Assembly: GCA_046331705.1 (NCBI GenBank)
Contig: JAXLQJ010000002.1
Coordinates: 78,370 to 142,369 of the forward strand
DNA from: a bacterium
GTDB lineage: Bacteria > JADJOY01
Length of the DNA: 64,000 nucleotides
Direction of reading: 5' to 3'
In this document: piece after piece, positions 2,131 through 28,248 of the stretch
Position numbering within the stretch: position 1 is the stretch's first letter
Layout: every line of letters begins with the position of its first letter
Notes under the pieces: generated by a model
Seen by the model: only the letters and a program-made list of their open reading frames with translations
Databases searched by the model: none
What the model was told of the DNA's origin: nothing
Translations under genes and position numbers: made by a program

Positions 2131-2152
2131 GGCCGAGCCTCGTCCTTTCGCC

Positions 2153-3877: not shown

Positions 3878-3930
3878 GAAGCCTCCCAGACTCGTCCCGT
3901 CACCCCACCGATCGACCGCCCCGGCGCCCG

Positions 3931-5559
3931 TCAGACGTAGCCCGCTTCTCGAGCCGCCGTGACGTACGTGGGCTCCGTCCACCACTTCGCGATCGCGAAG
4001 TCCTCGGCGATCGCGTTCGCGCAGTTGTAGCCAGGCCCGAAGATCACCATCCCCCCGGGCGCCGCGCTCGCGCCGCCGAGGTAGAGCCCCTTGACCGGCG
4101 TTCGATATTGCGAGCACTCCTGGTTCGGACGCAGGTAGCCCATCTGCAGCGGGTGGTACGCACCCTGCTTGTAGCTACCCCGCACCATGTTCGCGAACTT
4201 GTTCTGGAGGTCGGCAGGAGTCGTGAGATACGTCCACAACACGGCATCCTTGGTGAGGTTCGGAGCGTACCGACGAAGCACGGCGAGCTGCCGCTCGGCG
4301 GCCTCCTCTCGATACGCTCGATTCAGCCAACGTTCGGATCCCCCGTTCGCCAGCTCGAATGGCGCCATCTGGGAGATCAGTCCCGAGGCTCTCCCCGCGG
4401 GGGCTTGAAACGGATCGTGCCGGCTCGGAAAGCAGCAGTTGAAACCCGCGGCGTCCGGCATCTCGCCCCGCCCCATCGCATCCCAGTGGCTTTTCAGATC
4501 CGCCAGCGACTCGTAACCGAGGACGTAGATGAACGCGTCGTCGATCTCCGGCTCCTTCTCCGCGGCGGTGAAATGCGGCTGCTCGGCGAGGGCCAAGTGC
4601 TGGACGGCCAGGCTCCACTTCTCCCACTGCCACACACGCAGCATCTCGACGAACTCCTCGTCGAGCTTCTCCTCGCCCACGTACTTCAAGAAGGTCTGAT
4701 GGGTGTCGATGGTGCTCACGACGGCCTTGCTCGCCGCGTAGCGCGTCCCGTCCACGAGCTCGACGCCCTTGGCGACGTTGTTCTCGACCACGATCCGAGC
4801 GATCTGCGCGTTGGTTCGGATCTGACCCTTCTGCTCGAAGATCGATTTCAGCAGCGCTCCCGACACGCGGTGCGAACCGCCCACCGTGAGGCGATAATTC
4901 GCCATGCGATTCAAGTAGATCGGCACCATGTAGCTGACGCCCGACTGCGAATAGTCGAGCCCCCAATGACACGCCATGTAGAGCATCAGCGTTCGCACGT
5001 GCTCGTTCTCGAAGAGCTCGCAGACGATCTCTTCCGGCGTCTTCTCCGTGTACTCCGAGAGTGCTCGGCCGAGCTCCGTCATCTCCGCCCGCGCCGCCAT
5101 GAGCGGCGCCGCGTCCATCGGCACGTACGTCTGCGGCCCCAGGATGTGAGTCATCAGCTCGCCGAAGCGACGCTGCATGTCGCGGTAAGTATCCGCGTCT
5201 CGTCTCGAGAACCGAGCGATGGAAGCGCACGATCGCTCGACGTCGTGGTGAATGCAGAGCGCTCGCCCGTCCGCGAGCGGCATCGCGACCTGAAGCTCGG
5301 GGCGGATGTGTCGAACGCCGTATCGCTGCTCGAACTCGAAGTCCGAGTAGACCGGCGCGTAGTCGACCATCATCATGTAGACGGCGTGGGTGTTGTGATA
5401 GAAGTCCGGCAGCGTCACTTGCTCGGTGCAAAGGCCTCCTCCTGCTTCGAAACGTTTTTCGAGCAGCAACACCTTCTGCCCGGCCTTGCTCAGATACGCC
5501 GCGATGGCGAGCCCGTTCGGACCGCTTCCGATGACGATCACGTCGTAGACTTGCGTCAT
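3931..5559 (-). CDS. FAD-dependent oxidoreductase, phytoene desaturase (CrtI) family, paralog 3
   Basis: MTQVYDVIVIGSGPNGL N-terminus; C-terminal RTPVKGLY motif; 542 aa ORF. Confidence 0.8.
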   Translation of the reverse strand: MTQVYDVIVIGSGPNGLAIAAYLSKAGQKVLLLEKRFEAGGGLCTEQVTLPDFYHNTHAVYMMMVDYAPVYSDFEFEQRYGVRHIRPELQVAMPLADGRALCIHHDVERSCASIARFSRRDADTYRDMQRRFGELMTHILGPQTYVPMDAAPLMAARAEMTELGRALSEYTEKTPEEIVCELFENEHVRTLMLYMACHWGLDYSQSGVSYMVPIYLNRMANYRLTVGGSHRVSGALLKSIFEQKGQIRTNAQIARIVVENNVAKGVELVDGTRYAASKAVVSTIDTHQTFLKYVGEEKLDEEFVEMLRVWQWEKWSLAVQHLALAEQPHFTAAEKEPEIDDAFIYVLGYESLADLKSHWDAMGRGEMPDAAGFNCCFPSRHDPFQAPAGRASGLISQMAPFELANGGSERWLNRAYREEAAERQLAVLRRYAPNLTKDAVLWTYLTTPADLQNKFANMVRGSYKQGAYHPLQMGYLRPNQECSQYRTPVKGLYLGGASAAPGGMVIFGPGYNCANAIAEDFAIAKWWTEPTYVTAAREAGYV

Positions 5560-5656
5560 GAGATCCCTCGCGCCTCACTCGCGCCTCACGCGCGCCTCTC
5601 GCGCGCGGCGCGCAGCGCCCTCGCGGGGCTTCGCGCTTGCCATCGATGCGAAACGC

Positions 5657-7384
5657 TCACGCGACCCGCGGTCGGGCGTTCGCCTGCACCCGACGTTTCA
5701 CGATCTTGATCTGCTCGACCAGCGAGTCCGGCTCTTCCTTGCCTGGCTCGAGCCAAGGTTTCGCGAGCCCCAGATCCGCCGCGATGATCCGATAGCAGTT
5801 GTAGGCCTCCGTCGCTCCCGCGTTCGAGCCGACGTGCCACGCGCCGCCCGTGGCATAGAGGTTGGCGATCGGCGTGCGATGGTTCGCGAGCTCGGGCGTC
5901 GGACGGTTCTCGTCGGTCTGGAACGGCGAGCGATCGACGCCCGCCATGGTGCCGTTGGGACCGAGGTTCTTCATGCGGCGGTGATCGAACGAGCAGTTCG
6001 TATCGACGCCGATCACGTTGTCCCAGGTCATGTTGGGCGCGTAGTCCTGCCAGATCGTGATCAGCTCGTCGGCGTAGCGTTTCTTGATCTCGAGCCATTG
6101 CCGCTCGCTGAACGCCGTGGCGGGCGGTCCGAGCTGCTCGTTCTGGACGACGTGCTTTCCCGGAGGCGCGAAGCTCGGATCGACGAGGCTGTGACAGCCC
6201 ACCGTCGGCGCGTAGTCCTCGAGCGGCGGGAACTTCTGAAGCTTCTGGTACCAGCACTCGCGCGCCAGGTGCATCGGGTCGGGATCGGGCTGGAGCCCGA
6301 GCCACTGGCACTCGTGAATGTCCGGGTTGAACGCCTCGGCCTTGTACTTGGGCGCCGCGTGGACCGCGAAGCTGTACCACATGAGGCAGCCGAAGGTGTC
6401 TTGCAACAGCTCGACGCGCCGGCGCAGCAAGCCGTCCACGTGCTCCGCGCCGATCAGATCGAAGATCAATTGGTGCGGCGAGAGCGTGCTGACGACGATC
6501 TTGCGCGCCGCGATCTCGCTGCCGTCCGCGAGACGGATCCCGGTGGCGCGACCATTCTCGATGATGGCCTTGCTGACCGGTGAGCTGGTGAAGAACCGGC
6601 AGCCCCTCTGGATGAGGATCTGATGAGCCGCGTGCGCGATCTGGTGAGTGCCGCCGCGGTTGAAACCGATCGTCGGGAGCGTGGCCGCCATGCCCATCGT
6701 GGTCATGCCGGTGCCCGCTTCGTTGATGTCGACCACCGACGAGATGGCGAAACGCAGGATGCAGGATTGAAGCTCGGGAGACTCGAACCACTCCTGCGCG
6801 GCTCGTAGCCCGCTCGCCTTCATGGTCAACGTGTCCGGCGTGAAACCGTTCTCGAGCAGCGTCGGATAGAGCATCGCCTGGCGCTCCATGACGTCGCCCG
6901 AGATTCGTTCGTCGGCGGGCTTGAACAACGCGTCCACGAGCACCCGCAGGTATTCGTCGGTCTCGGTGAGCTTGGCGAGCCGACGCCAGGTATCGGCGTC
7001 GCGCTCCGAGAAGCGGGCGATCTCGTTGGCGGTCCGCTCTTGGGTGGGATCGTGCTTGACGCTGTAGATCGCGAGACAGCTCTCGGTGTCCCGGAACACG
7101 AAGCCGTCCGCGCACGTGTGCTGATCCCACTGCGCGCCGTAGTCCCAGAACTCGGGGAAGTCGCGCCACACGGGCGCGTAGTACCAGGGCAGGATGATGT
7201 TCGCGTGCGTGTTGCCGCGAAAGCCGGGGGCCGACGTCTCCTCGGTCGCGAGACAACCGCCGACCTCGTGACGGCGCTCGAAGATCCCGACGCTCATGCC
7301 GGCGTACTTCGTCAGGTACATCGCGAGCAACAGCGCCTTGTTGCCGCCCCCCACGATCACCGCGTCGAACGCCGCGTCGGCCAT
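5657..7384 (-). CDS. FAD-dependent oxidoreductase, phytoene desaturase (CrtI) family, paralog 4 (divergent GGGNKA nucleotide-binding loop)
   Basis: MADAAFDAVIVGGGNKAL N-terminus; C-terminal RTPIANLY motif; GAAGGGAG RBS before ATG. Confidence 0.75.
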   Translation of the reverse strand: MADAAFDAVIVGGGNKALLLAMYLTKYAGMSVGIFERRHEVGGCLATEETSAPGFRGNTHANIILPWYYAPVWRDFPEFWDYGAQWDQHTCADGFVFRDTESCLAIYSVKHDPTQERTANEIARFSERDADTWRRLAKLTETDEYLRVLVDALFKPADERISGDVMERQAMLYPTLLENGFTPDTLTMKASGLRAAQEWFESPELQSCILRFAISSVVDINEAGTGMTTMGMAATLPTIGFNRGGTHQIAHAAHQILIQRGCRFFTSSPVSKAIIENGRATGIRLADGSEIAARKIVVSTLSPHQLIFDLIGAEHVDGLLRRRVELLQDTFGCLMWYSFAVHAAPKYKAEAFNPDIHECQWLGLQPDPDPMHLARECWYQKLQKFPPLEDYAPTVGCHSLVDPSFAPPGKHVVQNEQLGPPATAFSERQWLEIKKRYADELITIWQDYAPNMTWDNVIGVDTNCSFDHRRMKNLGPNGTMAGVDRSPFQTDENRPTPELANHRTPIANLYATGGAWHVGSNAGATEAYNCYRIIAADLGLAKPWLEPGKEEPDSLVEQIKIVKRRVQANARPRVA

Positions 7385-8301: not shown

Positions 8302-8475
8302 TCGACGGTATTTCAGGTGCGCAAGCAACTTGCGTGACCTGCAGCACGCAACGATGAAATATTTTTCGAATGGCTCACGGCGCGACGAGACGGTGCGCGG
8401 CGAGAATTTCGAGCGATCGAAGCGCTGGGTGACGGGCGTCACATTTTCAGCCGGCGGCGCTGTTCCATGATGCAA

Positions 8476-8491
8476 GTAGAACGTGTTCTAA
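8476..8491. promoter_or_regulatory. second operator-like palindrome GTAGAACGTGTTCTAA
   Basis: Core TAGAACGTGTTCTA is a perfect 14-bp palindrome fitting TnnAACnnGTTnnA; about 75 bp upstream of the acyl-CoA dehydrogenase start. Confidence 0.55.
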
Positions 8492-8562
8492 TCGAACCGA
8501 CGCGCCGCGGACGGACGGCGGCGGCACAGGCGATCCGCGGCGGATCGTGGAGCGAGCACGGC

Positions 8563-9744
8563 GTGGACTTCGAGCTCAGCCCGGAACAGCACGCGCTGCG
8601 GCGAGAGCTTCGGCGTTATTACCGCGAGCTCTTCACGCCCGAGCTGCGGGCGGCCCTCGACGCCGAATGGCACGAGGTGGGCGGTCCGGTGTTCCGCGAG
8701 GTGGTCGGACGCATGGGGGCGGACGGCTGGCTCGGCATCGGCTGGCCGCGCGAATACGGCGGCCAGGGCCGGACCGCGATCGAGCAGCTCATCTTCTGGG
8801 ACGAGACCTACCGGGCGCGCGCGCCGCTTCCCGTCATCTCGGTGAACACCGTCGGTCCCACGCTGATGCGCTACGGCACCGAGGACCAGAAGGCACGGCT
8901 GCTCCCGGGAATCCTGCGAGGCCAGCTCTTCTTCGCGATCGGCTACACCGAGCCCGGCGCGGGGACCGATCTCGCCTCACTCAAGACGCAAGCCCGCCGC
9001 GACGGTGACGAGTACGTCATCCAGGGACAGAAGGTCTTCACCACCCACGCGCACGACGCCGACTACGTGTGGCTGGCCGCCCGCACCGATCCCGAGGCGC
9101 CGAAGCACAAGGGCATCAGCATCATCCTGGTGCCCACCAGCACGCCCGGCTTCTCGGTGACTCCGACCTACACGCTCGGCGGCGAACGCACCAACACCAC
9201 GTACTTCGACGAGGTGCGCGTGCCGATCGCGAACCGGGTCGGCCCCGAGCACGGCGGCTGGCAGCTCATCACCGCGCAGCTCAATCACGAGCGCATCACG
9301 CTCGCAGCACCCGGCCTCGCCGATCGGTTGCTCGAAGAGGTCTGGCAATGGGCTCGGCGCACGCGCGGCCCCGACGGCGCGCCGATCGCCTCGGCGCCGT
9401 GGGTGGAGCTGTCGCTGGCGCGCGTCTACGCGAAGCTCGAGGCGCTCAAGCTCCTCAACTGGCGCTCCGCGTGGTCGATGTCGGAGGGCGTGCCGCGGAT
9501 GGCCGAGGCCTCCGCGCTCAAGGTGATGGGCACCGAGTTCTTCGGCGAGTGCTACCGGCTGCTGCTCGAGATCACCGGCGCCGCCGGCCTGGTTCCCCAA
9601 GGGGAGACCGGAGCGCTCTTCGGTGGCTTGCTGGAGCAGGCGTACCGGGGCGCCACCACGCTCACCTTCGGCGGTGGCGTGAACGAGGTGCAGCGCGATC
9701 TCATCGCGTGGTCGGGACTCGACCTGCCGAGGTCGCGAGGCTGA
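8563..9744 (+). CDS. acyl-CoA dehydrogenase
   Basis: VDFELSPEQHALRREL N-terminus typical of ACADs; C-terminal GGGVNEVQRDLIA; start moved from 8467 to in-frame GTG at 8563, because the 8467 start overlaps the operator palindrome. Confidence 0.8.
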   Translation: MDFELSPEQHALRRELRRYYRELFTPELRAALDAEWHEVGGPVFREVVGRMGADGWLGIGWPREYGGQGRTAIEQLIFWDETYRARAPLPVISVNTVGPTLMRYGTEDQKARLLPGILRGQLFFAIGYTEPGAGTDLASLKTQARRDGDEYVIQGQKVFTTHAHDADYVWLAARTDPEAPKHKGISIILVPTSTPGFSVTPTYTLGGERTNTTYFDEVRVPIANRVGPEHGGWQLITAQLNHERITLAAPGLADRLLEEVWQWARRTRGPDGAPIASAPWVELSLARVYAKLEALKLLNWRSAWSMSEGVPRMAEASALKVMGTEFFGECYRLLLEITGAAGLVPQGETGALFGGLLEQAYRGATTLTFGGGVNEVQRDLIAWSGLDLPRSRG

Positions 9745-9754
9745 CGAGGCAAAC

Positions 9755-10744
9755 ATGGCCGCCACCCCATCCGATCGCGAGCAGCTCGAGACGAGACTCA
9801 AGGGGTTCGCGGGCATCGCCGCGGGGCCGCCGGAGATCGCCCGCGACGTGGTGGAAGCCGCGACGATCCGCCAATGGTGCGATGCCCTCGACGATCGCAA
9901 CCCGATCTACACCGACCCCGCGGCCGCCGCCGCGTCGGTCCACGGCCGTGTGGTCGCTCCGCCCACCATGCTGCAGGCGTGGGTGCTGCCGGGCATCGAG
10001 ATGGCCAGCGGGGTCGCGCGCCCCGGCGACAAGCAGCGCGAGCTGCACGCGCTCCTCGACCGCCACGGCTACACCGGCGTCGTGGCCACCAATTGCCAGC
10101 AGGGCTACGACCGCTATCTGCACCTGGGCGAGCGCGTGACCGGCACCACCGTCATCGAGTCGATCTCGGGCGAGAAGGCGACCGCGCTCGGTATCGGCTA
10201 CTTCATCGACACGCGCACCACCTTCCGCGACGACGACGGCGAGCGCGTGGGATGGATGACGTTCCGCGTGCTCAAGTTCAAGCCCGCAGCGCCCCCTGCC
10301 GCGAGCGAGCGCGACGCCGCGGGCGCGCCCGTCAAGCCCCGGCGGCTGCGGCCCGCGCTGGGTCACGACAACGCGTGGTGGTGGGAAGGGATCCGCCGCG
10401 GCGAGCTGCTCATCCAGCGCTGCAAGAGCTGCGGCCACCTGCGCCATCCGCCGCGACCGATGTGCGGCGAGTGCCGTTCGCTCGAATGGGACGCGCTCTC
10501 CTCGAAGGGCCACGGCAGCGTCTACAGCTTCGTGGTGATGCACCACCCGCAGGTGCCCGGCTACGAGTACCCGCTCATCGTGGCCCTCGTCGAGCTCGAC
10601 GAAGGCACCCGGCTGATCGCGAACCTCACGGGCATCGAGCCCCGCGCCGTGCGCATCGGGCTGCGGGTCGCGCTCGCCATCGAAGCCGTCGATCCCGAGC
10701 TCAGCTTGCCGTTCTTCCACCCCGACACCACCGCACCGGGCTGA
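9755..10744 (+). CDS. MaoC-like hydratase fused to C-terminal DUF35 OB-fold/Zn-ribbon domain (ChsH2-like architecture)
   Basis: N-terminal hot-dog-like region; C-terminal CKSCGH...CGECRS zinc ribbon followed by an OB-fold-like segment; the same two-domain layout as mycobacterial ChsH2. Confidence 0.8.
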   Translation: MAATPSDREQLETRLKGFAGIAAGPPEIARDVVEAATIRQWCDALDDRNPIYTDPAAAAASVHGRVVAPPTMLQAWVLPGIEMASGVARPGDKQRELHALLDRHGYTGVVATNCQQGYDRYLHLGERVTGTTVIESISGEKATALGIGYFIDTRTTFRDDDGERVGWMTFRVLKFKPAAPPAASERDAAGAPVKPRRLRPALGHDNAWWWEGIRRGELLIQRCKSCGHLRHPPRPMCGECRSLEWDALSSKGHGSVYSFVVMHHPQVPGYEYPLIVALVELDEGTRLIANLTGIEPRAVRIGLRVALAIEAVDPELSLPFFHPDTTAPG

Positions 10745-10746
10745 CC

Positions 10747-11883
10747 ATGGATTTCGCGCTCGACGAGGATCAGCAGTCGCTCCAGGCGCTGGCCCGCCAG
10801 ATCTTGGAACGGGAGGTCACGCCAGCGCGGATTCGCGCGGCGCTGGCGAGCGCGGACGGCATGGATCACGCGCTCTGGTCGACGCTCGCCGACGCGGGCC
10901 TCCTGGGGATCGGCGTTCCCGAGACGCACGGCGGCCTCGGCGGCGGTCTCGAGGCGCTGAGCTTGCTGCTGGTCGAGGTGGGGCGCGCCGTGGCGCCCGT
11001 GCCGGCGCTCGCGTCGCTCGCGCTGGCGGGCCTCGCGATCGCGCGTTTTGGAACCGAGCGGCAACGCGCCGAGCTGCTCGCGCCGCTCGCCGCGGGCCGG
11101 ACCGTTCTCACCGCGGCGCTCGTCGACGGCGAATCGTCCGATCCCCTCCGCCCCGCATGCAGCGCGCGACGCGACGGCGCGAGCTGGGTGATCGACGGCT
11201 CGAAGCGCCAGGTGCCCGCGATCGCCGCCGCCAGCGCGATCGTCGTGCCCGCGCGCACCGAAGGCGGCGTCGGTCTCTTCGTGGTGCCGCCGAGCGCCGC
11301 CGGCGTCGAGCCGAGCCGCCGGCGCTGCTCGAGCGGCGAGCCGATCGCCGATCTGGCCCTCACGGGCGTGCGCGTGGACGCCGACGCGCTGCTCGGCACG
11401 GCGGCGCCCGTCGGCGACGACGCGAGCCGCTGGCTCCACGAGCACGCGCTCGCCGCGACTTGCGCCGTGCACCTGGGTGTCTGCGAGCGCGCGCTCGAGC
11501 TGACCCGCGACTACGTTCGCGAGCGGCGTCAGTTCGGCGTGCCGATCGGCTCGTTCCAGGCGGTGAGCCATCGCGCCGCCGATGGCTTCATCGACGTCGA
11601 GTGCATCCGCTGGACCACCTGGCAGGCGGTGACGCGGGTGGCGCGCGGCCTCGACGCGACCCGCGCGCTCGCCGTCGCGAAGTTCTGGGCCGCCGAGGGC
11701 GGAGCGCGCGTCACCAGCTCCGCGCAGCACCTCCACGGCGGCATCGGCGCCGACCTCGACTACCCGATCCACCGCTATTTCCTGTGGTCGAAGGCGCTCG
11801 AGCTGAGCCTCGGCGGTGCCACCGAGCAGCTCGCGAGGCTCGGTCGCGATCTGGTGACCCGCGGCCCGGAGGTGCTCGCATGA
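10747..11883 (+). CDS. acyl-CoA dehydrogenase (second subunit-like)
   Basis: MDFALDEDQQSLQALARQILEREV start 3 nt after the upstream stop. The track ORF 9874..11883 is an artefactual 5' extension in this frame. Confidence 0.8.
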   Translation: MDFALDEDQQSLQALARQILEREVTPARIRAALASADGMDHALWSTLADAGLLGIGVPETHGGLGGGLEALSLLLVEVGRAVAPVPALASLALAGLAIARFGTERQRAELLAPLAAGRTVLTAALVDGESSDPLRPACSARRDGASWVIDGSKRQVPAIAAASAIVVPARTEGGVGLFVVPPSAAGVEPSRRRCSSGEPIADLALTGVRVDADALLGTAAPVGDDASRWLHEHALAATCAVHLGVCERALELTRDYVRERRQFGVPIGSFQAVSHRAADGFIDVECIRWTTWQAVTRVARGLDATRALAVAKFWAAEGGARVTSSAQHLHGGIGADLDYPIHRYFLWSKALELSLGGATEQLARLGRDLVTRGPEVLA

Positions 11884-12308
11884 ACGACTGCGCGCTTCGC
11901 CTTCGCGACGTGAACGTGGGCGACGTGCTGCCCGAGCTGGCGATCGACGTCACCACCACCCTGATCGTCGCAGGCGCCCTCGCCTCGCACGACTTCACGC
12001 CCGTTCACCACGACAAGGCCGCTGCCCGAGCGCAGGGCTTGAACGACGTGTTCATGAACATCCTCACGACCAACGGCCTGGTGGGGCGCTACGTCACCGA
12101 TTGGGCCGGGCCGAACGCGCGGCTCACCGGCGTCGCGATCAAGCTCGGAGCGCCCAACCTGCCCGGCGACACGATGCGCATGTCGGGCGTCGTCAAGAGC
12201 AAGGACGACGCGCGCGGCTCCGTCGAGGTCGAGGTCACCGGCAAGAACTCGTGGGGAAACCACGTGACCGCGACGGTCGCGTTGCTGCTGCCCGAGGACG
12301 CCGCGTGA
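11880..12308 (+). CDS. MaoC family dehydratase, small hot-dog subunit (ChsH1-like)
   Basis: ATGA start/stop overlap with the upstream gene; GGAGG RBS; 142 aa MNDCALRLRDVNVGDV...; tail of track ORF 11157..12308. Confidence 0.75.
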   Translation: MNDCALRLRDVNVGDVLPELAIDVTTTLIVAGALASHDFTPVHHDKAAARAQGLNDVFMNILTTNGLVGRYVTDWAGPNARLTGVAIKLGAPNLPGDTMRMSGVVKSKDDARGSVEVEVTGKNSWGNHVTATVALLLPEDAA

Positions 12309-12357
12309 CGGCGCAGCTCCCGTCCGGACGCGCACCGAGCAGCGAGCGGAGCCACGC

Positions 12358-13530
12358 ATGCCCACGACGTTGAGGGATCAGGCCGCGATCGTCGGCATCG
12401 GCGAGACCGACTACTCGAAGAACTCGGGGCGCTCCGAGGTTCAGCTCGCCAGCGAAGCGGTCGCCGCCGCCCTCGACGACGCCGGGCTGCGCCCCTCCGA
12501 CGTCGACGGCATGACCACGTTCACCCTCGACTCGAGCGACGAGATCGAGGTGGCGCGTGCCGTGGGCATCCGCGACCTCACGTTCTTCAGCCGCGTGCCC
12601 CACGGCGGCGGCGCCGCGGTCGGCGTGGTCCATCAAGCGGCGATGGCGGTCGCCACCGGCGCGGCGCGCACGGTGGTGTGCTACCGCGCGCTCAACGGCC
12701 GCTCGGGTCAGCGCTACAGCTCCGGCGTCGCCGACGGGCCGACCACCTCCGATCTCATCCATTGGAGCTGGTACATGCCCTTCGGCCTCATGACGCCCGC
12801 GAGCTGGGTGGCGATGTTCGCCCAGCGCTACATGCACGAGTACGGCGTCACCAGCCTCGACTTCGGGCGGGTCGCGGTGTCGACGCGCAAGCACGCGGTG
12901 CGCAATCCGCGAGCGTTCTTCCACGGCAAGCCGCTCTCGATCGCCGAGCACCAGGCGTCGCGGCTGATCGTCGAGCCGTTGCGTCTCTACGATTGCTGCC
13001 AGGAGACCGACGGCGGCTGCGCCTGCATCGTGACCACGCCCGACCGCGCGCGCGATTGCCGCCAGCCCGCCGCGACGATTCGCGGCGTCGCGCAAGGCTC
13101 GTGCGCCGATCAGGAAGTGATGACCAGCTTCTATCGGCCGAGCATCTCCGGGCTGCCCGAGATGGACCTGGTGGCGCGCCAGGTCTACGACGTCTCGGGC
13201 TTGCGCCCAGACGACGTGGACGCGGCGGTGATCTACGACGCCTTCTCGCCCATCGTGCTGTGGCAGCTCGAGAGCTTCGGCTTCTGCAAGGTCGGCGAAG
13301 CGCGCGATTTCGTGAACGGCGGCAATCTCGAGATCGGCGGGCGCCTGCCGAGCAACACCCACGGCGGGCAGCTCAGCGAGGCCTACGTCCACGGCATGAA
13401 CGGCGTGAACGAGGGCGTGCGGCTGATCCGCGGCACCTCGTGCAATCAACCGCGGCGCAACGATCACGTGCTGGTCACCGCCGGCGTGGGCGTTCCGACC
13501 AGCGCCATGATCCTCGGCAAGACCGCGTGA
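12358..13530 (+). CDS. thiolase-like lipid-transfer protein (SCP-x type, Ltp2-like)
   Basis: IVGIGETDYSKNSGRSE thiolase-like N-terminus; CCQETDGGCACIV; GGAG RBS. Confidence 0.8.
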   Translation: MPTTLRDQAAIVGIGETDYSKNSGRSEVQLASEAVAAALDDAGLRPSDVDGMTTFTLDSSDEIEVARAVGIRDLTFFSRVPHGGGAAVGVVHQAAMAVATGAARTVVCYRALNGRSGQRYSSGVADGPTTSDLIHWSWYMPFGLMTPASWVAMFAQRYMHEYGVTSLDFGRVAVSTRKHAVRNPRAFFHGKPLSIAEHQASRLIVEPLRLYDCCQETDGGCACIVTTPDRARDCRQPAATIRGVAQGSCADQEVMTSFYRPSISGLPEMDLVARQVYDVSGLRPDDVDAAVIYDAFSPIVLWQLESFGFCKVGEARDFVNGGNLEIGGRLPSNTHGGQLSEAYVHGMNGVNEGVRLIRGTSCNQPRRNDHVLVTAGVGVPTSAMILGKTA

Positions 13531-14799
<1,269 letters not shown>

Positions 14800-14874
14800 G
14801 CTTCCGCGCCGACCAGCGGACCGCGTCGAACCACGCGAGGACCTCGACAACCCGAGCATGCGGAGGAGCTGGCG

Positions 14875-15810
14875 ATGACGACGAACGCGAGGCCGCTCGA
14901 AGGGAAGGTCGCGATCGTGACGGGCGCGGGACGTGGGCTGGGACGCGCCGAAGCGCTGGCGCTCGCCGCGCACGGCGCGCGCGTGGTGATCAACGACCTC
15001 GGCGTGGCGGGGGACGGCTCGGGCGCGGACGAGGGCCCCGCACGCGAGGTGGTGGCCGAGATCGAGCGCGCCGGTGGCGAGGCGATCGCCCATTTCGGCG
15101 ACGTCGCGCGCTGGGACGACGCGGCGGCGCTGGTGGCGCGGGCGGTCGACGTGTTCGGCGATCTGCACGTCCTCGTGAACAACGCCGGCTTCAGCCGCGA
15201 TCGCATGATCTTCAACATGTCGGAGCAGGATTGGGACTCGGTGATCCGCGTCCATCTCAAGGGCCATTTCTGCACCTCGCGATTCGCCACCGCGCATTGG
15301 AGGGAGCAGGCGAAGGTCGCGGGTGGCCCGGTCTACGGGCGCATCGTCAACACCGCGTCCGAGGCGTTCCTGTTCGGACCGGCCGGGCTGGCCAACTACG
15401 CCGCCGCGAAGTCGGGAATCGTCGGCCTCACCGTCGCCACCGCGCACGCGTGCGAGAAATACGGCGTGACGGCCAACGTGGTGTGCCCGCGGGCACGCAC
15501 CCGCATGAACAGCGAAGGGAGCCTCGGCGCGCTGTTCGCCAAGCCCGAGCAGGGATTCGACACCTACGACCCCGCCAACGTGGCGCCGCTGGTGGCGTAC
15601 CTCGCGTCGCCTGCCGCCGGGCGCATCAACGCCCACGTGTTCCTGGCGTGGGGAACGCAGGTCTGCTTGATCGGCGCGCCGCGCGTCCTCGAGACCTTCA
15701 CGAGCGACGCGCGCTGGACGGTCGACCGGCTCGACGAGCGCGTCGGCCGCTACCTGGAGACCCGCGATCCCGCCTCCACGGCGTTCGCCGCCGAGCTTCC
15801 CGGGATCTGA
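14875..15810 (+). CDS. SDR family oxidoreductase, MFE-2/Hsd4A-like hydroxyacyl-CoA dehydrogenase
   Basis: [13 protein letters not shown] cofactor motif, [14 protein letters not shown] segment, YAAAK catalytic motif; GGAGGAG RBS. Confidence 0.8.
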
Positions 15811-15832: not shown

Positions 15833-16615
15833 TCAGGACGCCTCGGCCTTCTCGATCAGCTTCCAGAGCAGCTTGGGCGCGAAGCGCCGGAGCCCGAGCA
15901 AGAACTTCGCCTCGCCGGTGGGGAAGACGATCTCGTCGCCGCGCTCGAGCGCTTCCTCGACCAGCTCCACGATGCGCTCCGGCTTCGCCAGCCGGCCCTG
16001 CTCGATGCCGATCTGGATCGAACGCGGATTGGATCCCTCGATCGCCTGCTCGAGCAGCGGCGTGTCCACCATCGGCGGACAGACGAGCAGGATGCGCACG
16101 CCGCTACCGCGATTCTCGTGGATCAACACCTCGGCGAAGATGTTCACCGCCGCCTTGCTGGCGTTGTAGGCGCCGAGGTGCGGAGTGGGCACCAGGCCCG
16201 CGAGCGAACCGTAGAAGATCCAGTCGCCCGCGCGGCGCGCGACCATCGCGGGCAAGGTGGCGGTGGCGAGATGGAGGGTGCCTTCGTAGTTGATGCGCAT
16301 GACGCGGCGGATGGTCTCGACCGGCATGGTCAGCAGCGGCGCCGTGGGCATGATCGCCGCCGCGTGAGTCACGCGGTCGACGGCGCCGAGCTCCGCGCCG
16401 ACGCGCTCCACGGTGGCGCGCACCTCGTCGAGATTCGCGAGGTCGCAGCGATAGGTGCGCACGCTGGCGCGCCCGGCGGCGGTGCGCGCGAGCCCCTCTT
16501 CGTTCACGTCGAGCGCCGCGACCGTGGCCCCCGCGTCGGCCAACCGCCACGCGGAGAGTTGCCCCATGCCACTGGCGGCGCCGGTGACCAAGGCGAGCTT
16601 CCCGTGAAAGGCCAT
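15833..16615 (-). CDS. SDR family oxidoreductase
   Basis: MAFHGKLALVTGAASGMG start (ORF 15833..16705 trimmed to ATG at 16615); YNASKAAV catalytic motif. Confidence 0.75.
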   Translation of the reverse strand: MAFHGKLALVTGAASGMGQLSAWRLADAGATVAALDVNEEGLARTAAGRASVRTYRCDLANLDEVRATVERVGAELGAVDRVTHAAAIMPTAPLLTMPVETIRRVMRINYEGTLHLATATLPAMVARRAGDWIFYGSLAGLVPTPHLGAYNASKAAVNIFAEVLIHENRGSGVRILLVCPPMVDTPLLEQAIEGSNPRSIQIGIEQGRLAKPERIVELVEEALERGDEIVFPTGEAKFLLGLRRFAPKLLWKLIEKAEAS

Positions 16616-16732
16616 CTGCGTTCCCCCCGCCCGCGGTCGCGCGCCTCGCGCGCGCGAGCGCCGAGCATACGTTTCACCCGCGCGACCACCCGTGACCTCG
16701 ATCACCCTGCTCGCACGTGCCCGACTGCGCCC

Positions 16733-16761
16733 TTGACCCTGGATCGGCGGGCCGGTAATAG
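16733..16761 (+). promoter_or_regulatory. sigma70-like promoter candidate TTGACC-N17-TAATAG
   Basis: Read in an AT-richer intergenic stretch about 45 bp upstream of the sterol desaturase-family gene; GGAGG RBS follows. Confidence 0.3.
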
Positions 16762-16806
16762 TGATTCTGAATTTAGGAATGCTGGTTTTTGAGCGGGAGG
16801 CTCTGC

Positions 16807-17484
16807 ATGTCGGTCGCCGTCGCCGTCGCGATCACGATTGGAATGGTGATGTCCGCCTTCACGATGGGGGCGGTGGTGTGGGGCTTCTACTCGCCGATCA
16901 GCGCCAACATCCGCATCCGGGAAGAGAAGGCGCGCAAGCTCAAGGGCTGGCCGGTGGCGCTGCGGATCGGGCTCAACGGGCTGTTCTCGTCGGGACTCGT
17001 GTACCTGCTCGCGCTGGCCTTGCAGCACCAGCTCTTCTACGCGGCGCGCCCGTCGCTGGCGCGGCTCGCGTTCGAGTCGGTCGCGGTGCTCGTCGTCTAC
17101 GACTTCCTCTACTACTTGCTGCACCGCTATCCGTTTCACGCGTGGCCGGGCTTGCGCGAGGTGCACGCGGTCCATCACCGCGCCAAGTACCCGATCGCGT
17201 TCGACAGCCTCTACCTGAATCCCATCGAGACCCTCGCCGGTCTCGCCTTGCTCACCTTCTGCACCTGGCTGGTCGGGCCGGTGAGCGTGCACGCGTTCGG
17301 GCTGATCTTCTTGGTGTACTCGCAGATGAACATCCTGGTTCACTGCGGGCTCGATCTGCCCGGCGCGCTCCGGCCGTTTGGCTTCATGGCGCGCAAGCAC
17401 GACGCGCATCACCGGCACATGAAGGCCGGCAACTTCGCGTCGCTGACTCCGATCTGGGATCGGCTCTTCCGCACCGCGGAGTGA
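16807..17484 (+). CDS. sterol desaturase / fatty acid hydroxylase superfamily membrane protein
   Basis: Histidine boxes HRYPFH, HAVHHR and HDAHHRH in a hydrophobic protein; start set at ATG 16807 behind GGAGG. Confidence 0.8.
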   Translation: MSVAVAVAITIGMVMSAFTMGAVVWGFYSPISANIRIREEKARKLKGWPVALRIGLNGLFSSGLVYLLALALQHQLFYAARPSLARLAFESVAVLVVYDFLYYLLHRYPFHAWPGLREVHAVHHRAKYPIAFDSLYLNPIETLAGLALLTFCTWLVGPVSVHAFGLIFLVYSQMNILVHCGLDLPGALRPFGFMARKHDAHHRHMKAGNFASLTPIWDRLFRTAE

Positions 17485-17543
17485 CGCCGAGCGGCGCCGG
17501 CGCTCGCTCCCGCTGCCTGCCGGACGGCGACCGCCGCTTCCCG

Positions 17544-19445
17544 TCAGGGGACCGTCCAGCGCGGCGGCAGCGGCGGCAAGCGGTGGGCGCGCGCCCACTC
17601 GCTCCACCACGTGTCGAAATCCTCGGGGAACACGTCGTCGCCGACTCCCTGGCGCGTCCAGAGCTCGAGCGCCAGCGCTCCGCCCACCGTGTCCGCGAGG
17701 GCGACCCCGAAATACTCCTCGATCGGCACGGGCTGCCCTTCGAACGGCGGCGGCGTTCCCGCCGAATAGCCCGAGAACGATCCGCGCTGGATGGCGAAGC
17801 GGATGCGCCGCGCATCGCCGAGCGCGGGACCGGCGGCGCACACGAACTGCGACGGCGTGACGAGCACGCCGGCGCCGAAATGATCCCACGCGACCCAGGC
17901 ATCGTTGCGATCGAGCCCCGCGATCCGCTCGATGATCGGCTTCACGATCGGGTGCGGCTCGTACCAACCGAGGACCCCGAGATTGGCGTCGAGGCTGCGG
18001 CCGAGCCGCGCGGCGGCCCAGCGATTCGCGGACACGATGGCCGTGTCGAGGTCGCCTTCCGCGGCGAACGGCTCGCCGCCGAGCTTACCGAGCGCCGTGA
18101 GCGCCGCCACCACGACCGGCCGCTCGACGGCGGGGTCCAGGCAATTCGCGAGACGCAGCAGCACGAGCACGTTCTCGTCCGAGCGGTCGCGGGACATCAG
18201 CGCGAGCCCGAGGTTGCGCAACGCGGGCATGCCGGTGAGCGGATCGACCACCGCCCTGCCGACACGTCCCCCGATCGACGGCACCAGGGCCACGCCAGCG
18301 ACCGCGGCGCAGAGCAGCAGCACCGGCGCGGCGCGCGCCAGCTTCCAGATCGCGAGCTGCTCGGGCGCGGGCGGCAAGCGCGCGAGCGAATGGACGTCGA
18401 GGGCGGGCTCGCGGCGGTCACCCGAACCGTCGCCGGCCGCGTCGTCGGGGTCGGGGTCGAGCGTGCCCGGGAACATCTCGTCCGCCCCGACCGCCGGGCT
18501 TTCCTCGAGCGCCACTGCGAGGAACGCCGCCAGATCGCGGGCGCGATCGCGCGCAACCTCGACCGTCCGTCCCGCGCCGAGCTGCTCGTCGCTCTCCCCG
18601 CCACGAAGCTCGACGAGCCACTCGCCGCGATCGGACGGCGACGCCAGCGCGCGCTTCGCCCAGCCCACGCGCAAGCCGGCGGGCAGCGCCTCGGTGCGTC
18701 GCGCGAATGCCAGGGGTCCGAGCGCCCGGAAGCGCGAGCGCGTGCGAGCCGCGCGATCGATCTCGATCACCTGCCACGACGCGAGCAACGCTCCCGCCGC
18801 CGCGAGCAGCCCGCCGAACACCACGCCGCCCCAGGCCACCGACTGCCCCTGGAGCCACAGGAACGCGAGCCCCACCGCCATCATCGGCACGCCGGCGGCC
18901 ACCTGCCGGCTCATCGTCACGATGCGAAAGGTCTGGGCGGCGCCGGCCACGGCACCGAACCGCTCGGCGCGCCGCACGAGGACGTTGAGCAGGATCGTGA
19001 AGATCGCCGGCAACACCAGGATCCAGGCGAGCGTGCGGACGGCGCGCCGCTCGAACGCGCCGACGTCGTCGACGTCGCCCCAGCGCACCCGCAAGCTGTC
19101 GTGGTTGATCCCGGTGGCGGGCAGCTCCGGGTTGAACCACACCGAGATCCGCGAGCCCACCGGGTGCGCGGCGATCGAGGCCGCGTCGCTCGCGAGCTCC
19201 TGCTCGGTGCCGTCGATGGTGCCGCGGAGCGTGCAGTGGACCGGCGAGGTGCCGGTGCGATGTCCCTGGGCGTCGTATTCGGGCTGACCACCCGTGCACG
19301 CGGAGCCCGTCACGACGAGCTCCGCGCGCCGGAATCCGGCGGCGTGACGAAGCACCAGCGAACGATTCCAGATCCCCGGGCCCACGATGAAGCCCAGCAG
19401 CACCACCAGCACGAGCACGGCGCGAACGAGCGTCCGGCCGTTCAC
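17544..19445 (-). CDS. hypothetical multi-pass membrane protein (633 aa)
   Basis: Several hydrophobic segments (VLVLVVLLGFIVGPGIW, WILVLPAIFTILLNVLV, VVFGGLLAAAGALLASW). Overlapping plus ORF 16761..19592 is Arg/Ala/Gly-rich shadow. Confidence 0.5.
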   Translation of the reverse strand: MNGRTLVRAVLVLVVLLGFIVGPGIWNRSLVLRHAAGFRRAELVVTGSACTGGQPEYDAQGHRTGTSPVHCTLRGTIDGTEQELASDAASIAAHPVGSRISVWFNPELPATGINHDSLRVRWGDVDDVGAFERRAVRTLAWILVLPAIFTILLNVLVRRAERFGAVAGAAQTFRIVTMSRQVAAGVPMMAVGLAFLWLQGQSVAWGGVVFGGLLAAAGALLASWQVIEIDRAARTRSRFRALGPLAFARRTEALPAGLRVGWAKRALASPSDRGEWLVELRGGESDEQLGAGRTVEVARDRARDLAAFLAVALEESPAVGADEMFPGTLDPDPDDAAGDGSGDRREPALDVHSLARLPPAPEQLAIWKLARAAPVLLLCAAVAGVALVPSIGGRVGRAVVDPLTGMPALRNLGLALMSRDRSDENVLVLLRLANCLDPAVERPVVVAALTALGKLGGEPFAAEGDLDTAIVSANRWAAARLGRSLDANLGVLGWYEPHPIVKPIIERIAGLDRNDAWVAWDHFGAGVLVTPSQFVCAAGPALGDARRIRFAIQRGSFSGYSAGTPPPFEGQPVPIEEYFGVALADTVGGALALELWTRQGVGDDVFPEDFDTWWSEWARAHRLPPLPPRWTVP

Positions 19446-26489: not shown

Positions 26490-27479
26490 ATGAAGGTCGC
26501 CGTCACCGGCGCCGCCGGACACGTCGGCGGCAACCTGGTCCGGGCGCTCCTCGAGCGTCGCCACCAGGTGCGCGCGATCGTGTACCAGGACACCCGCGCC
26601 GTCGACGGCCTCGCCGTCGAGCGCGTGCCCGCGGACGTGCTCGACGCCGACCAGGTGCAGCGCGCCTTCGAGGGAGTCGACTGGGTCTTCCACCTCGCCG
26701 CCAAGGTCTCGATCGAGGGCGACCCCGACGGCTCGGTGCACCGCACCAACGTGCTCGGCACACGCCACGTGGTCGAGGCCTGCCTGGCGCGCGGCGTGAA
26801 GCGCCTGGTCCACTTCAGCTCGGTCCACGCGCTGCGCAACGATCCGTACGACGTGCCGATGGACGAAGGGCGCCCGCTCGCCGACGAAGGACATGCCTTC
26901 GCCTACGATCTCTCGAAGGCCGGTTCGGAACGCGAGGTCCAGGCGGGCATCAAGCGCGGCCTCGACGCCGTGATCGTGAATCCCACCGCCATCCTCGGCC
27001 CCAGCGACTTCAAGCCGTCGCGCATGGGTCAGGTGCTCGTCGATCTCCACTTCCGGCGCTTACCGGCGCTGGTGGCCGGCGGCTTCGACTTCGTGGACGT
27101 GCGCGACGTCGCCGAGGGCGCCATCGCCGCCGCCGAGAGAGGCCGCACCGGCGAGCGCTACCTGCTCGGCAACGAGTACCGGCCGGTGCGCGAGCTCGCC
27201 GGGCTCTGCCGCGACGTCGCCGGCATCCGACCGCCGCGCTTCACGTCGCCGCTTTGGCTCGCCAGGGCCGGAGCGCCGTTCGCCGTCGCGTGGGCCAAGG
27301 TCTCCGGCACGCGCCCGCTCTTCACCGAGGAGTCCCTGCACGCGCTCGCGGGCAATCCCAACGTGAGTCACGAGAAGGCCACCCGCGAGCTCGGCTATCG
27401 ACCGCGCCCGCTCGCCACGAGCGTCGCCGACACCTACGGCTGGCTGCGCGAAGCCGGCCTGCTCGAAACCAAGACGTGA
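26490..27479 (+). CDS. NAD-dependent epimerase/dehydratase family protein (extended SDR, 3beta-HSD-like)
   Basis: MKVAVTGAAGHVGGNLV Rossmann start; YDLSK catalytic motif; tail of track ORF 25485..27479. Confidence 0.8.
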   Translation: MKVAVTGAAGHVGGNLVRALLERRHQVRAIVYQDTRAVDGLAVERVPADVLDADQVQRAFEGVDWVFHLAAKVSIEGDPDGSVHRTNVLGTRHVVEACLARGVKRLVHFSSVHALRNDPYDVPMDEGRPLADEGHAFAYDLSKAGSEREVQAGIKRGLDAVIVNPTAILGPSDFKPSRMGQVLVDLHFRRLPALVAGGFDFVDVRDVAEGAIAAAERGRTGERYLLGNEYRPVRELAGLCRDVAGIRPPRFTSPLWLARAGAPFAVAWAKVSGTRPLFTEESLHALAGNPNVSHEKATRELGYRPRPLATSVADTYGWLREAGLLETKT

Positions 27480-27486
27480 GGCATCG

Positions 27487-28248
27487 ATGACCGAGCATCA
27501 GCTCTACATGTGGGTGGTCTGGATCTGGCTCGGCCTCGCGGCGTTCACCTTCGTCTCGCTGTTCTTCTTCACCGCTCCCTACGGGCGCCATGCGCGCGCC
27601 GGCTGGGGGCCGATGATCGAGCGCACGGCCGCGTGGATGATCATGGAATCGCCGGTGGTCTTCCTGCCGCTGATCCTGTTCTTGGTGAGCGACCGGCGCG
27701 CGCTGGTGCCGTACGGGATCTTCCTGCTGATCTGGGAGTTTCACTACGTCCACCGCACCTTCGTGTTCCCGTTCCGGCTGCGCGGCGGCCAACCCCAGAT
27801 GCCGCTCTCGATCGTGGCGAGCGCGATCGTGTTCAACGTCGGCAACGCCTATCTGCAAGCGCGCTGGCTCTTCCACCTGCGCGAGCCCTATCCCGCCACT
27901 TGGCTGAGCGATCCGCGCTTCGCCATCGGCCTGGTGCTCTTCGCCGTCGGCTTCGCCATCAACTACCACTCCGACGGGATCACGCGGAATCTGCGCAAGC
28001 CCGGCGAGACCGGCTACAAGATCCCCTACGGTGGGTTCTTCCGCTGGGTGTCGGCGCCCAACTACCTGGGCGAGCTGATCGAGTGGACCGGCTGGGCGAT
28101 CCTCACGTGGTCGCGCGGCGGTGTGGTGTTCGTGATCTGGAGCGCCGCGAACCTGGTGCCGCGCGCGATCGCCAACCACCGCTGGTACCGCGAGAAGTTC
28201 CCGGACTACCCGCCCGAGCGTCGCGCCATCGTTCCCGGGCTGCTCTGA
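27487..28248 (+). CDS. 3-oxo-5-alpha-steroid 4-dehydrogenase (steroid 5-alpha-reductase / DUF1295) family membrane protein
   Basis: C-terminal GGFFRWVSAPNYLGELIEWTGWAI matches the SRD5A-family signature; multi-pass hydrophobic protein; starts 7 nt after the upstream stop. Confidence 0.8.
   Translation: MTEHQLYMWVVWIWLGLAAFTFVSLFFFTAPYGRHARAGWGPMIERTAAWMIMESPVVFLPLILFLVSDRRALVPYGIFLLIWEFHYVHRTFVFPFRLRGGQPQMPLSIVASAIVFNVGNAYLQARWLFHLREPYPATWLSDPRFAIGLVLFAVGFAINYHSDGITRNLRKPGETGYKIPYGGFFRWVSAPNYLGELIEWTGWAILTWSRGGVVFVIWSAANLVPRAIANHRWYREKFPDYPPERRAIVPGLL

Follow-up and report, generated by a model that had tools for sequence, protein, structure and literature searches.

A small membrane di-iron oxygenase from a largely Myxococcota-restricted family as a plausible bacterial sterol oxidase

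What does a solitary gene of the sterol desaturase family oxidise in a bacterium, and is its substrate a sterol? The question is raised by a 64,000-nucleotide stretch of bacterial DNA, hereafter the window (GTDB lineage JADJOY01; GenBank assembly GCA_046331705.1, contig JAXLQJ010000002.1, positions 78,370 to 142,369 of the forward strand), which carries one such gene, here called the oxygenase gene. Its product is predicted to be a small integral-membrane di-iron monooxygenase of 225 residues with about 4–5 transmembrane helices, and by sequence it falls in a branch of the FA_hydroxylase superfamily that is uncharacterised and largely restricted to Myxococcota. A bacterial sterol oxidase is a plausible description of the enzyme. 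More precisely, we regard it as an evenly balanced proposition that its target is a methyl group on a sterol-like substrate; the C-4 position is the most likely one, because C-4 sterol methyl oxidases (SMOs) are its nearest characterised relatives, the tightest genetic partner of its family is an NSDHL-like dehydrogenase and CYP51 is a recurrent neighbour. The credible connection to sterols comes mainly from relatives of the window gene, and it is from comparisons with these and with known enzymes that we infer the sterol substrate, the methyl-oxidase chemistry, the electron donor and the regulation.

At the level of the superfamily the database annotation of the gene is correct, its specific activity being what we infer. 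The product matches the Pfam profile FA_hydroxylase (PF04116) over profile positions 2–132 of 132 (E 2.5e-25; 89.8 bits against a cutoff of 31) and matches no NCBIfam model. In an alignment of 31 homologues nine histidines are invariant (H106, H111, H120, H123, H124, H179, H198, H201 and H202) and H138 is at least 90% conserved. The boxes HRYPFH, HAVHH and HDAHH follow the superfamily pattern of HX3-4H, HX2-3HH and HX2-3HH plus extra conserved histidines, and after the third box comes GNFAS, the counterpart of the GNYAS motif of SMO-type enzymes. A confident structure model of the product is helical, and Scs7p is the only match from the FA_hydroxylase superfamily among solved structures. The membrane oxygenase with three histidine boxes that the initial annotation had described is thus borne out.

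The open reading frame list of the window begins the gene at a TTG codon (16789..17484, plus strand, 231 residues). The ATG at 16807, giving 225 residues, is the likely start as judged from the sequence, since GGGAGG lies 6 nt before it, the N-termini of homologues fit and NCBI holds an identical 225-residue protein ('MAG: sterol desaturase family protein [bacterium]'; 100% identity to the product of 16807..17484). Contigs from GCA_964620525.1 and from two SRA assemblies carry the same gene call. The GC content at third codon positions is 0.93, much as in the neighbouring genes, and comparison with orthologues of 87% identity gives dN/dS values of 0.14–0.16 (synonymous divergence from the relatives, dS, 0.46–0.58); on these two measures the gene is native and under purifying selection.

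The family was placed within the superfamily by scoring its profile against eleven reference enzymes, each confirmed by an exact database look-up. Human C-4 methylsterol oxidase, MSMO1, came first with 82.6 bits in a match spanning profile positions 27–223, followed by SUR2 (47.2 bits), ERG25 (46.1), CH25H (31.0), ERG3 (30.6), SC5D (29.4), STE1 (26.2), AGMO (25.5), FA2H (15.6), CrtZ (11.2) and SCS7 (6.3). The alignment with MSMO1 takes in an N-terminal juxtamembrane segment ('RIREE' in the family, 'KYKIQKDK' in MSMO1) as well as the GNYAS/GNFAS motif. MSMO1 was also the top BLAST match for 15 of 16 family members, at 27–35% identity, the window protein itself giving a tie between ERG25 (52.0 bits) and MSMO1 (51.6 bits). 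When the family profile was run against 1.84 billion cluster representatives, 72 clusters scored at E<1e-30 and 1396 at E<1e-10. Ten matches at 87–108 bits were looked up, and those at 87–95 bits, the first of them to fall outside the family, include two proteins annotated by JGI as '4-alpha-methyl-delta7-sterol-4alpha-methyl oxidases' and two eukaryotic proteins, which score best on MSMO1 by BLAST. Among the verified references, the C-4 methylsterol oxidases are on these scores the nearest characterised relatives. Other placements fared less well: CrtZ (11 bits), AGMO (25 bits) and FA2H and SCS7 (16 and 6 bits) were rejected, the family being nested in none of them; nor is it nested in SUR2, the sphingolipid C4-hydroxylase (47 bits); and CH25H (31 bits) groups with the SMOs, apart from the family, in a neighbour-joining tree.

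The stronger pointers to a sterol substrate lie in the gene neighbourhoods of relatives. With one genome scanned for each species, 305 relatives were obtained, and the best 80 of these are almost all from Myxococcota (Nannocystaceae, Polyangiaceae, Sandaracinaceae, Byssovorax, Enhygromyxa salina, Plesiocystis pacifica and Paraliomyxa), with one from a Dadabacteria metagenome-assembled genome (MAG); the carriers E. salina and P. pacifica are sterol producers. Linkage was counted within 8 kb at 66 non-redundant loci with enough flanking sequence, on which open reading frames were called and neighbours clustered. A gene of the 3β-hydroxysteroid dehydrogenase (3β-HSD) family accompanies the oxygenase gene at 27 of the 66 loci, typically 7 bp downstream, a TetR regulator at 26, an aldehyde dehydrogenase (ALDH) at 25, a GMC oxidoreductase at 20 and a PaaE-like FNR-[2Fe-2S] reductase at 17, here 20–150 bp upstream; at 32 loci at least one of the 3β-HSD, ALDH, GMC and reductase genes is present. 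These linkages occur in several gene orders and across the whole range of identity within the family (36–74%), a pattern better explained by functional coupling than by synteny kept through common descent. The closest solved relative of the linked 3β-HSD is human NSDHL (E 1.4e-37, the next match being at 1e-18), and many members of its family are annotated by JGI as sterol-4alpha-carboxylate 3-dehydrogenases. CYP51 divergently adjoins the oxygenase gene at three loci (L020, 2-1510; L022, 8002-9831; L029, 8114-9907) and lies 9 kb away at two more (L031, 19186-20670; L036, 19195-20670). The top match of these CYP51s in the PDB is the Methylococcus enzyme 6MCW (E 8e-161 for L022 and 2e-180 for L031), and at least the L022 copy has the C-terminal ferredoxin part of the Methylococcus-type fusion. 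A 626-residue protein near CYP51 in L022 was considered as an oxidosqualene cyclase and rejected, as it has neither a PDB match nor a DCTAE motif. Other recurrent neighbours (serpin, MBL hydrolase, VKOR-DsbA, PntAB and poly-gamma-glutamate genes) were judged unrelated. One sub-clade carries, beside GMC and ALDH, a BphC-like extradiol dioxygenase and an HsaD/BphD-like meta-cleavage-product hydrolase (L055, 1788-3717; L063, 539-1378), the latter scoring 190 bits on the HsaD model against a cutoff of 400, so that the same catabolic island may also take part in ring cleavage.

The following scheme would account for these associations. The nine to ten conserved histidines would bind two irons on the cytoplasmic face of the membrane, where O2, together with two electrons supplied by a reductase encoded by another gene, would be used to hydroxylate a methyl group on a sterol-like lipid. 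The reductase in relatives would be the PaaE-type FNR-[2Fe-2S] protein encoded directly upstream, taking the place of cytochrome b5. The alcohol would then be oxidised to the acid by separate enzymes, the adjacent GMC alcohol oxidase and ALDH, and the acid would be handled by the NSDHL/ERG26-like 3β-HSD. In the lineage of the window, the oxygenase gene appears to have been split from this partner operon and is now monocistronic, with a conserved promoter and a likely operator of its own. The TetR control and the HsaC/D-like neighbours seen in relatives, together with the side-chain operon of the window described below, suggest that the window copy acts in the remodelling or breakdown of sterols rather than in their housekeeping synthesis.

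Several observations weigh against oxidation at C-4 by an SMO-like enzyme. The phylogeny, for which we used neighbour-joining trees with limited sampling (the tree of reference enzymes being bootstrapped), places the family as a monophyletic group outside the clade of ERG25 and MSMO1 (91%), outside that clade joined by CH25H (97%) and outside the one joined further by SUR2 (86%). In a larger tree two other proteins, P0431 and P0390, join the eukaryotic SMOs, and the family of the window protein forms a separate bacterial radiation; these two score 117–126 bits on MSMO1 against 52 for the window protein, whose identity to the SMOs is only about 30%. The window protein is, on this evidence, SMO-like yet outside the SMO clade. 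Of the ERG3/ERG25-like character given in the initial annotation, what stands is that ERG25 and MSMO1 are the nearest characterised enzymes, and neither the ERG3 option nor membership of the SMO clade survives; the trees likewise place the family outside the carotene and fatty-acid hydroxylases. The 64-kb window itself contains no reductase, NSDHL-like, GMC, ALDH or CYP51 gene, and a motif search of it revealed no oxidosqualene cyclase, squalene-hopene cyclase, P450 or Rieske motif. The best NCBIfam model for the linked 3β-HSD is OleD, a 2-alkyl-3-oxoalkanoate reductase, albeit below cutoff, so that the true substrate might be a non-sterol β-hydroxy acid. About half of the related loci have no informative neighbours, and the P. 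pacifica copy adjoins a fatty-acid desaturase and a MerR regulator, with no sterol genes. TetR control and HsaC/HsaD-like neighbours fit catabolism over biosynthesis and leave the oxidised position unfixed. Finally, C-4 demethylation in E. salina has been fully reconstituted with SdmABC, and no ERG25 homologue was found in that organism at strict cutoffs (Lee et al., 2023; PMC10202945).

P0431 (L090, 10001-10846) and P0390 are separate, high-GC FA_hydroxylases of about 270–280 residues, of metagenomic and probably bacterial origin, and no obvious sterol genes surround the P0431-type gene in L090. This group may, from its sequence, be the true 'bacterial ERG25'.

Relatives of the window gene at 74% identity (L012 and L013) show how the partner operon and the oxygenase gene may have been arranged. 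In this sister lineage the oxygenase gene converges on an operon transcribed in the order TetR, HSD, GMC, ALDH. In the clade of the window the gene for a 633-residue membrane protein takes the place of the ALDH-GMC-HSD operon downstream of the oxygenase gene. The clade still has the operon, on a separate contig of MAG GCA_964447125.1 (L095, 582-4914; L096, 1266-4632), which also carries an orthologue at 87% identity (L010; L011 is the second relative at this level); the HSD of this operon and that of L013 share 78% identity. It is likely, by analogy, that the TetR-HSD-GMC-ALDH operon lies elsewhere in the genome of the window too.

The oxygenase gene is a stand-alone, monocistronic transcription unit, being flanked by a divergent gene for a short-chain dehydrogenase/reductase (SDR) and by the convergent gene for the 633-residue protein (Table 1); both flanks and their orientations are as the initial annotation gave them. 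The promoter it proposed, TTGACC-N17-TAATAG, also holds up. With TAATAG at 16756-16761 and a spacing of 17–18 nt from TTGACC to TAATAG/AATAGT, this is the sole sigma-70-like match in 16400..17700, where shuffled sequences lead one to expect 0.1, and its elements are conserved in relatives. So is the proposed GGAGG ribosome-binding site, present here as GGGAGG. No intrinsic terminator was predicted.

Table 1. Coordinates of the oxygenase gene, its control elements and its neighbours in the window.
Feature	Coordinates	Strand	Remarks
CDS of the oxygenase gene	16807..17484	+	225 aa plus stop; SMO-like membrane di-iron oxygenase of the FA_hydroxylase superfamily (predicted)
Histidine box 1, HRYPFH (H106, H111)	17122..17139	+	invariant in 31 homologues; aligns with MSMO1 HRLLHH
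Histidine box 2, HAVHH (H120, H123, H124)	17164..17178	+	invariant; aligns with MSMO1 HKVHH
Histidine box 3, HDAHH (H198, H201, H202)	17398..17412	+	histidines invariant; aligns with MSMO1 HHDFHH...GNYAS
-35-like hexamer TTGACC	16733-16738	+	TTGACC kept in L010 and L011; TTGCCC in L012 and L013
25-nt motif GTAATAGTGATTCTGAATTTAGGAA	16755..16779	+	AT-rich; covers the -10-like TAATAG
Ribosome-binding site GGGAGG	16795-16800	+	GGAGG kept in L010 and L011
Divergent neighbour, classical SDR	15833..16705	-	Pfam adh_short; NCBI calls a 260-aa form starting at 16615
Convergent neighbour, 633-aa membrane protein	17544..19445	-	several hydrophobic segments
Steroid side-chain β-oxidation-type operon	8467..15810	+	ends about 1 kb upstream of the oxygenase gene

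A 25-nt stretch at the promoter appears to be more than a -10 element. The sequence GTAATAGTGATTCTGAATTTAGGAA contains the imperfect palindrome TTCTGAAT/TTAGGAA and recurs in the relatives with 0–1 mismatches at 87% identity (L011 at position 1569, L010 at 3973) and with 2–3 at 74% identity (L012 at 161, L013 at 9930). It is kept, with the -35 element, while the remaining intergenic DNA of the relatives diverges. The stretch is thus likely to be a -10 element overlapped by a candidate operator. It is unique in the window, with 0 occurrences expected by chance; among the fetched loci it is confined to the clade of the window itself, with the near-matches in L012 and L013; its sole match in a metagenome collection is the same locus; and it is absent upstream of the TetR-HSD operon. 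No regulon can be derived from it, as the searches of the window, the fetched loci and the metagenome collection led back to the same locus only.

The immediate neighbours were rejected as a guide to function, both being lineage-specific. Orthologues of the divergent SDR are found only in L010 and L011, where they adjoin the oxygenase gene, and it shares at most 32% identity with SDRs adjoining other members of the oxygenase family. The 633-residue protein matches no Pfam or NCBIfam model, and its homologues, found only in L001, L002 and L011, are restricted to the immediate clade of the window.

The products of the operon upstream are an acyl-CoA dehydrogenase, a hydratase subunit of the ChsH2 type (FAS1_DH, zinc ribbon and OB domains by Pfam), a MaoC hydratase, an Ltp-type protein (NCBIfam PRK07855, 633 bits against a cutoff of 469), a steroid 3-ketoacyl-CoA thiolase (PRK07850, 648 bits against 515) and an SDR (PRK07792, 377 bits, below the cutoff of 414), and genes for an OYE flavoenzyme and an enoyl-CoA hydratase follow it. 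By its gene content this set is typical of steroid side-chain degradation, and with a steroid-type thiolase above the curated cutoff the window does, as had been suggested, carry genes of the sterol-catabolic type. Our literature searches on sterol degradation in Myxococcota found nothing relevant.

The case is different for the gene at 26490..27479, which had been put forward as an ERG26-like partner in C-4 demethylation. In NCBIfam its product, an extended SDR, scores highest on HpnA (248 bits, cutoff 368) and next on SdmB (225 bits, cutoff 600); on human NSDHL it reaches only 42 bits, against 183 on its top solved relative, the unrelated 3WJ7, and we saw no conserved linkage of it to the oxygenase family. 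The proposed pairing is not supported. Beginning 8 bp after the gene is one for a 253-residue protein of the steroid 5α-reductase family (PF02544, E 1.8e-50), and the two (26490-28248, plus strand) could, from their sequences, be a sterol or hopanoid ring-modifying pair. Elsewhere in the window, four tandem paralogues of CrtI/CrtO-like FAD-dependent oxidoreductases of 542–654 residues occupy 445-7384 on the minus strand; the three that were scanned match the beta-carotene ketolase CrtO model of NCBIfam best, at 135–232 bits against a cutoff of 1000. An 846-residue protein (41758-44298, plus strand) has an unusual architecture, with an N-terminal B12-binding domain followed by PQQ/BamB-type β-propeller repeats. 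The rest of the window is housekeeping in character (hrcA-grpE-dnaK-dnaJ, tol-pal and a class A penicillin-binding protein).

Considering this context, the alternative that survives best is that the enzyme hydroxylates the sterol side chain, at C-26/27 or C-25, as a non-P450 analogue of Cyp125 or CH25H. Hydroxylation would prime the chain, GMC and ALDH would carry it on to the acid and the neighbouring β-oxidation enzymes would shorten it. We consider this unlikely overall, and it nevertheless fits the context of the window better than does oxidation at C-4: the ChsE/ChsH/Ltp/FadA5-type operon is close by, and the window has no P450. In relatives, the combination of 3β-HSD, hydroxylase, alcohol oxidase, ALDH and TetR, with HsaC/HsaD-like genes nearby, is what one would expect of an entry set for sterol catabolism, and the L034 gene follows genes for an apparent acyl-CoA ligase (from a reading of its sequence only), a DUF35/ChsH2-type thiolase-like protein and an Ltp-like protein. 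CH25H belongs to the same super-clade in the neighbour-joining tree, and the C-25 hydroxylase of E. salina was left unidentified (Lee et al., 2023; PMC10202945). Set against this, CH25H scores 31 bits where MSMO1 scores 82.6, the tight operonic pairing with an NSDHL-like enzyme and the adjacency of CYP51 point to methyl groups of the sterol nucleus, and no acyl-CoA ligase gene adjoins the oxygenase gene in the window.

Next in order, and rather improbable in our view, is hydroxylation of a membrane lipid other than a sterol (a sphingoid base, as by SUR2, the chain of a fatty acyl group or an ether lipid, a hopanoid or other terpenoid, or a 2-alkyl-3-hydroxy acid), in which case the sterol genes nearby would be there by coincidence or would belong to a lipid-oxidation module of wider scope, built like AlkB-AlkJ-AlkH. 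Both sphingolipids and ether lipids are made by myxobacteria, SUR2 ranks second among the references, the partner HSD prefers OleD among NCBIfam models, and hydroxylase, GMC and ALDH together make up a generic route from methyl group to acid. The loci lacking sterol-related neighbours, which make up half of the total, and the fatty-acid desaturase beside the P. pacifica copy fit here as well. Such a lipid would not explain why CYP51 recurs at five loci, why, among solved structures, NSDHL matches the partner HSD so much better than any other or why a steroid-specific thiolase equivalog is encoded beside the gene in the window; and FA2H, SCS7, AGMO and CrtZ all score poorly, the family not being nested within SUR2 either. 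Ether-lipid cleavage of the AGMO type, considered as an explanation of the linkage to ALDH, was dropped in view of the 25-bit score of AGMO and the lack of support in the literature. A C-5 sterol desaturase of the ERG3/SC5D type, which has in its favour the shared superfamily and the generic database name 'sterol desaturase family protein', is very improbable, as ERG3, SC5D and STE1 score 26–31 bits against the 82.6 of MSMO1 and form a clade with 100% bootstrap support that excludes the family, and as ERG3 is inferred to have arisen within eukaryotes (Hoshino and Gaucher, 2021; PMC8237579).

Returning to oxidation at C-4, comparison with known systems shows both how far the analogy reaches and where it ends. 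With the eukaryotic SMOs (MSMO1/SC4MOL, ERG25 and plant SMO) the window protein shares the superfamily, the architecture of the histidine boxes, the basic juxtamembrane segment and the GNYAS-type motif after box 3, and in relatives its gene is paired with one for an NSDHL/ERG26-like enzyme. Unlike them, it is shorter by about 70–85 residues, only about 30% identical and outside their clade, and the first histidine of the SMO 'WHY' motif is an invariant tyrosine (Y102) in its family. The likely electron donor of the family would be a PaaE-type FNR-ferredoxin reductase where the SMOs use cytochrome b5, and relatives of the gene bring along GMC and ALDH genes that the eukaryotic enzymes do not need. 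The Rieske oxygenase SdmA, with SdmB (and SdmC), performs the task proposed here, the oxidation and removal of the sterol C-4 methyl group; it is, however, unrelated to the window protein, and the window lacks a Rieske motif. The HpnA/SdmB-like SDR of the window, at 26490..27479, lies 9 kb from the oxygenase gene; its score falls short of the curated cutoff, and elsewhere it shows no linkage to the family. CH25H shares the super-clade with low similarity, and Cyp125 is a P450. The setting of cyp125 in the cholesterol catabolic gene clusters of actinobacteria resembles that of the window gene beside genes for side-chain β-oxidation. The module seen in relatives is also reminiscent of AlkB-AlkJ-AlkH, in which a membrane di-iron hydroxylase, a GMC alcohol dehydrogenase and an ALDH act with a dedicated electron-transfer protein; AlkB, however, belongs to the FA_desaturase and not the FA_hydroxylase family, the module of relatives includes a 3β-HSD/NSDHL-like enzyme, and the window lacks all partners of the module.

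The sterol pathway of Myxococcota is the most eukaryote-like among bacteria, and this phylum has been proposed as the source of the eukaryotic pathway. 'ERG25 homologues' of Myxococcota and Dadabacteria were reportedly described by Desmond and Gribaldo in 2009. Homologues of ERG25 and ERG26 were detected in some myxobacteria at lenient cutoffs (Wei et al., 2016; PMC4919349), and homologues of ERG25-27 in both myxobacteria and Dadabacteria, in many cases in synteny with other sterol genes (Hoshino and Gaucher, 2021; PMC8237579). The family of the window protein has the same taxonomic range, Myxococcota and Dadabacteria, and in some genomes a similar synteny with CYP51 and ERG26-like genes, a likeness drawn at the level of taxa and gene order; the E. 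salina copies, by contrast, reach only about 35 bits on yeast ERG25, below the cutoffs of these papers. What the literature calls ERG25 may instead be the group of P0431 and P0390, which is closer to MSMO1. Our literature searches for a role of a protein of this kind in Myxococcota yielded nothing relevant.

A wider, tentative reading, which we think rather doubtful as a whole, is that the family supplies the oxygenase of a bacterial sterol methyl-oxidation pathway independent of P450 and cytochrome b5, whose parts may be the PaaE-type reductase, the SMO-like hydroxylase, GMC, ALDH and the NSDHL-like dehydrogenase/decarboxylase under TetR control. The family may thereby provide either a second, ERG25/26-like route of C-4 demethylation beside SdmABC, by which methylsterols would be remodelled or catabolised, or the missing bacterial C-25/C-26 side-chain hydroxylase, and the window copy may have been relocated and separately regulated to feed the side-chain β-oxidation operon in a Myxococcota-like bacterium.

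In conclusion, the result for the gene itself is modest, adding another uncharacterised member to a known superfamily. The window as a whole suggests steroid side-chain catabolism in a Myxococcota-like lineage, a subject on which the literature was silent in our searches. The oxidation of sterol methyl groups in Myxococcota is only partly settled, as SdmABC is enough in E. salina and the reported homologues of ERG25-27 are putative. With its linkage to genes for NSDHL-like enzymes, CYP51, GMC, ALDH and reductases, the family is a well-defined candidate that could be studied at little cost in existing lanosterol-producing E. coli systems.

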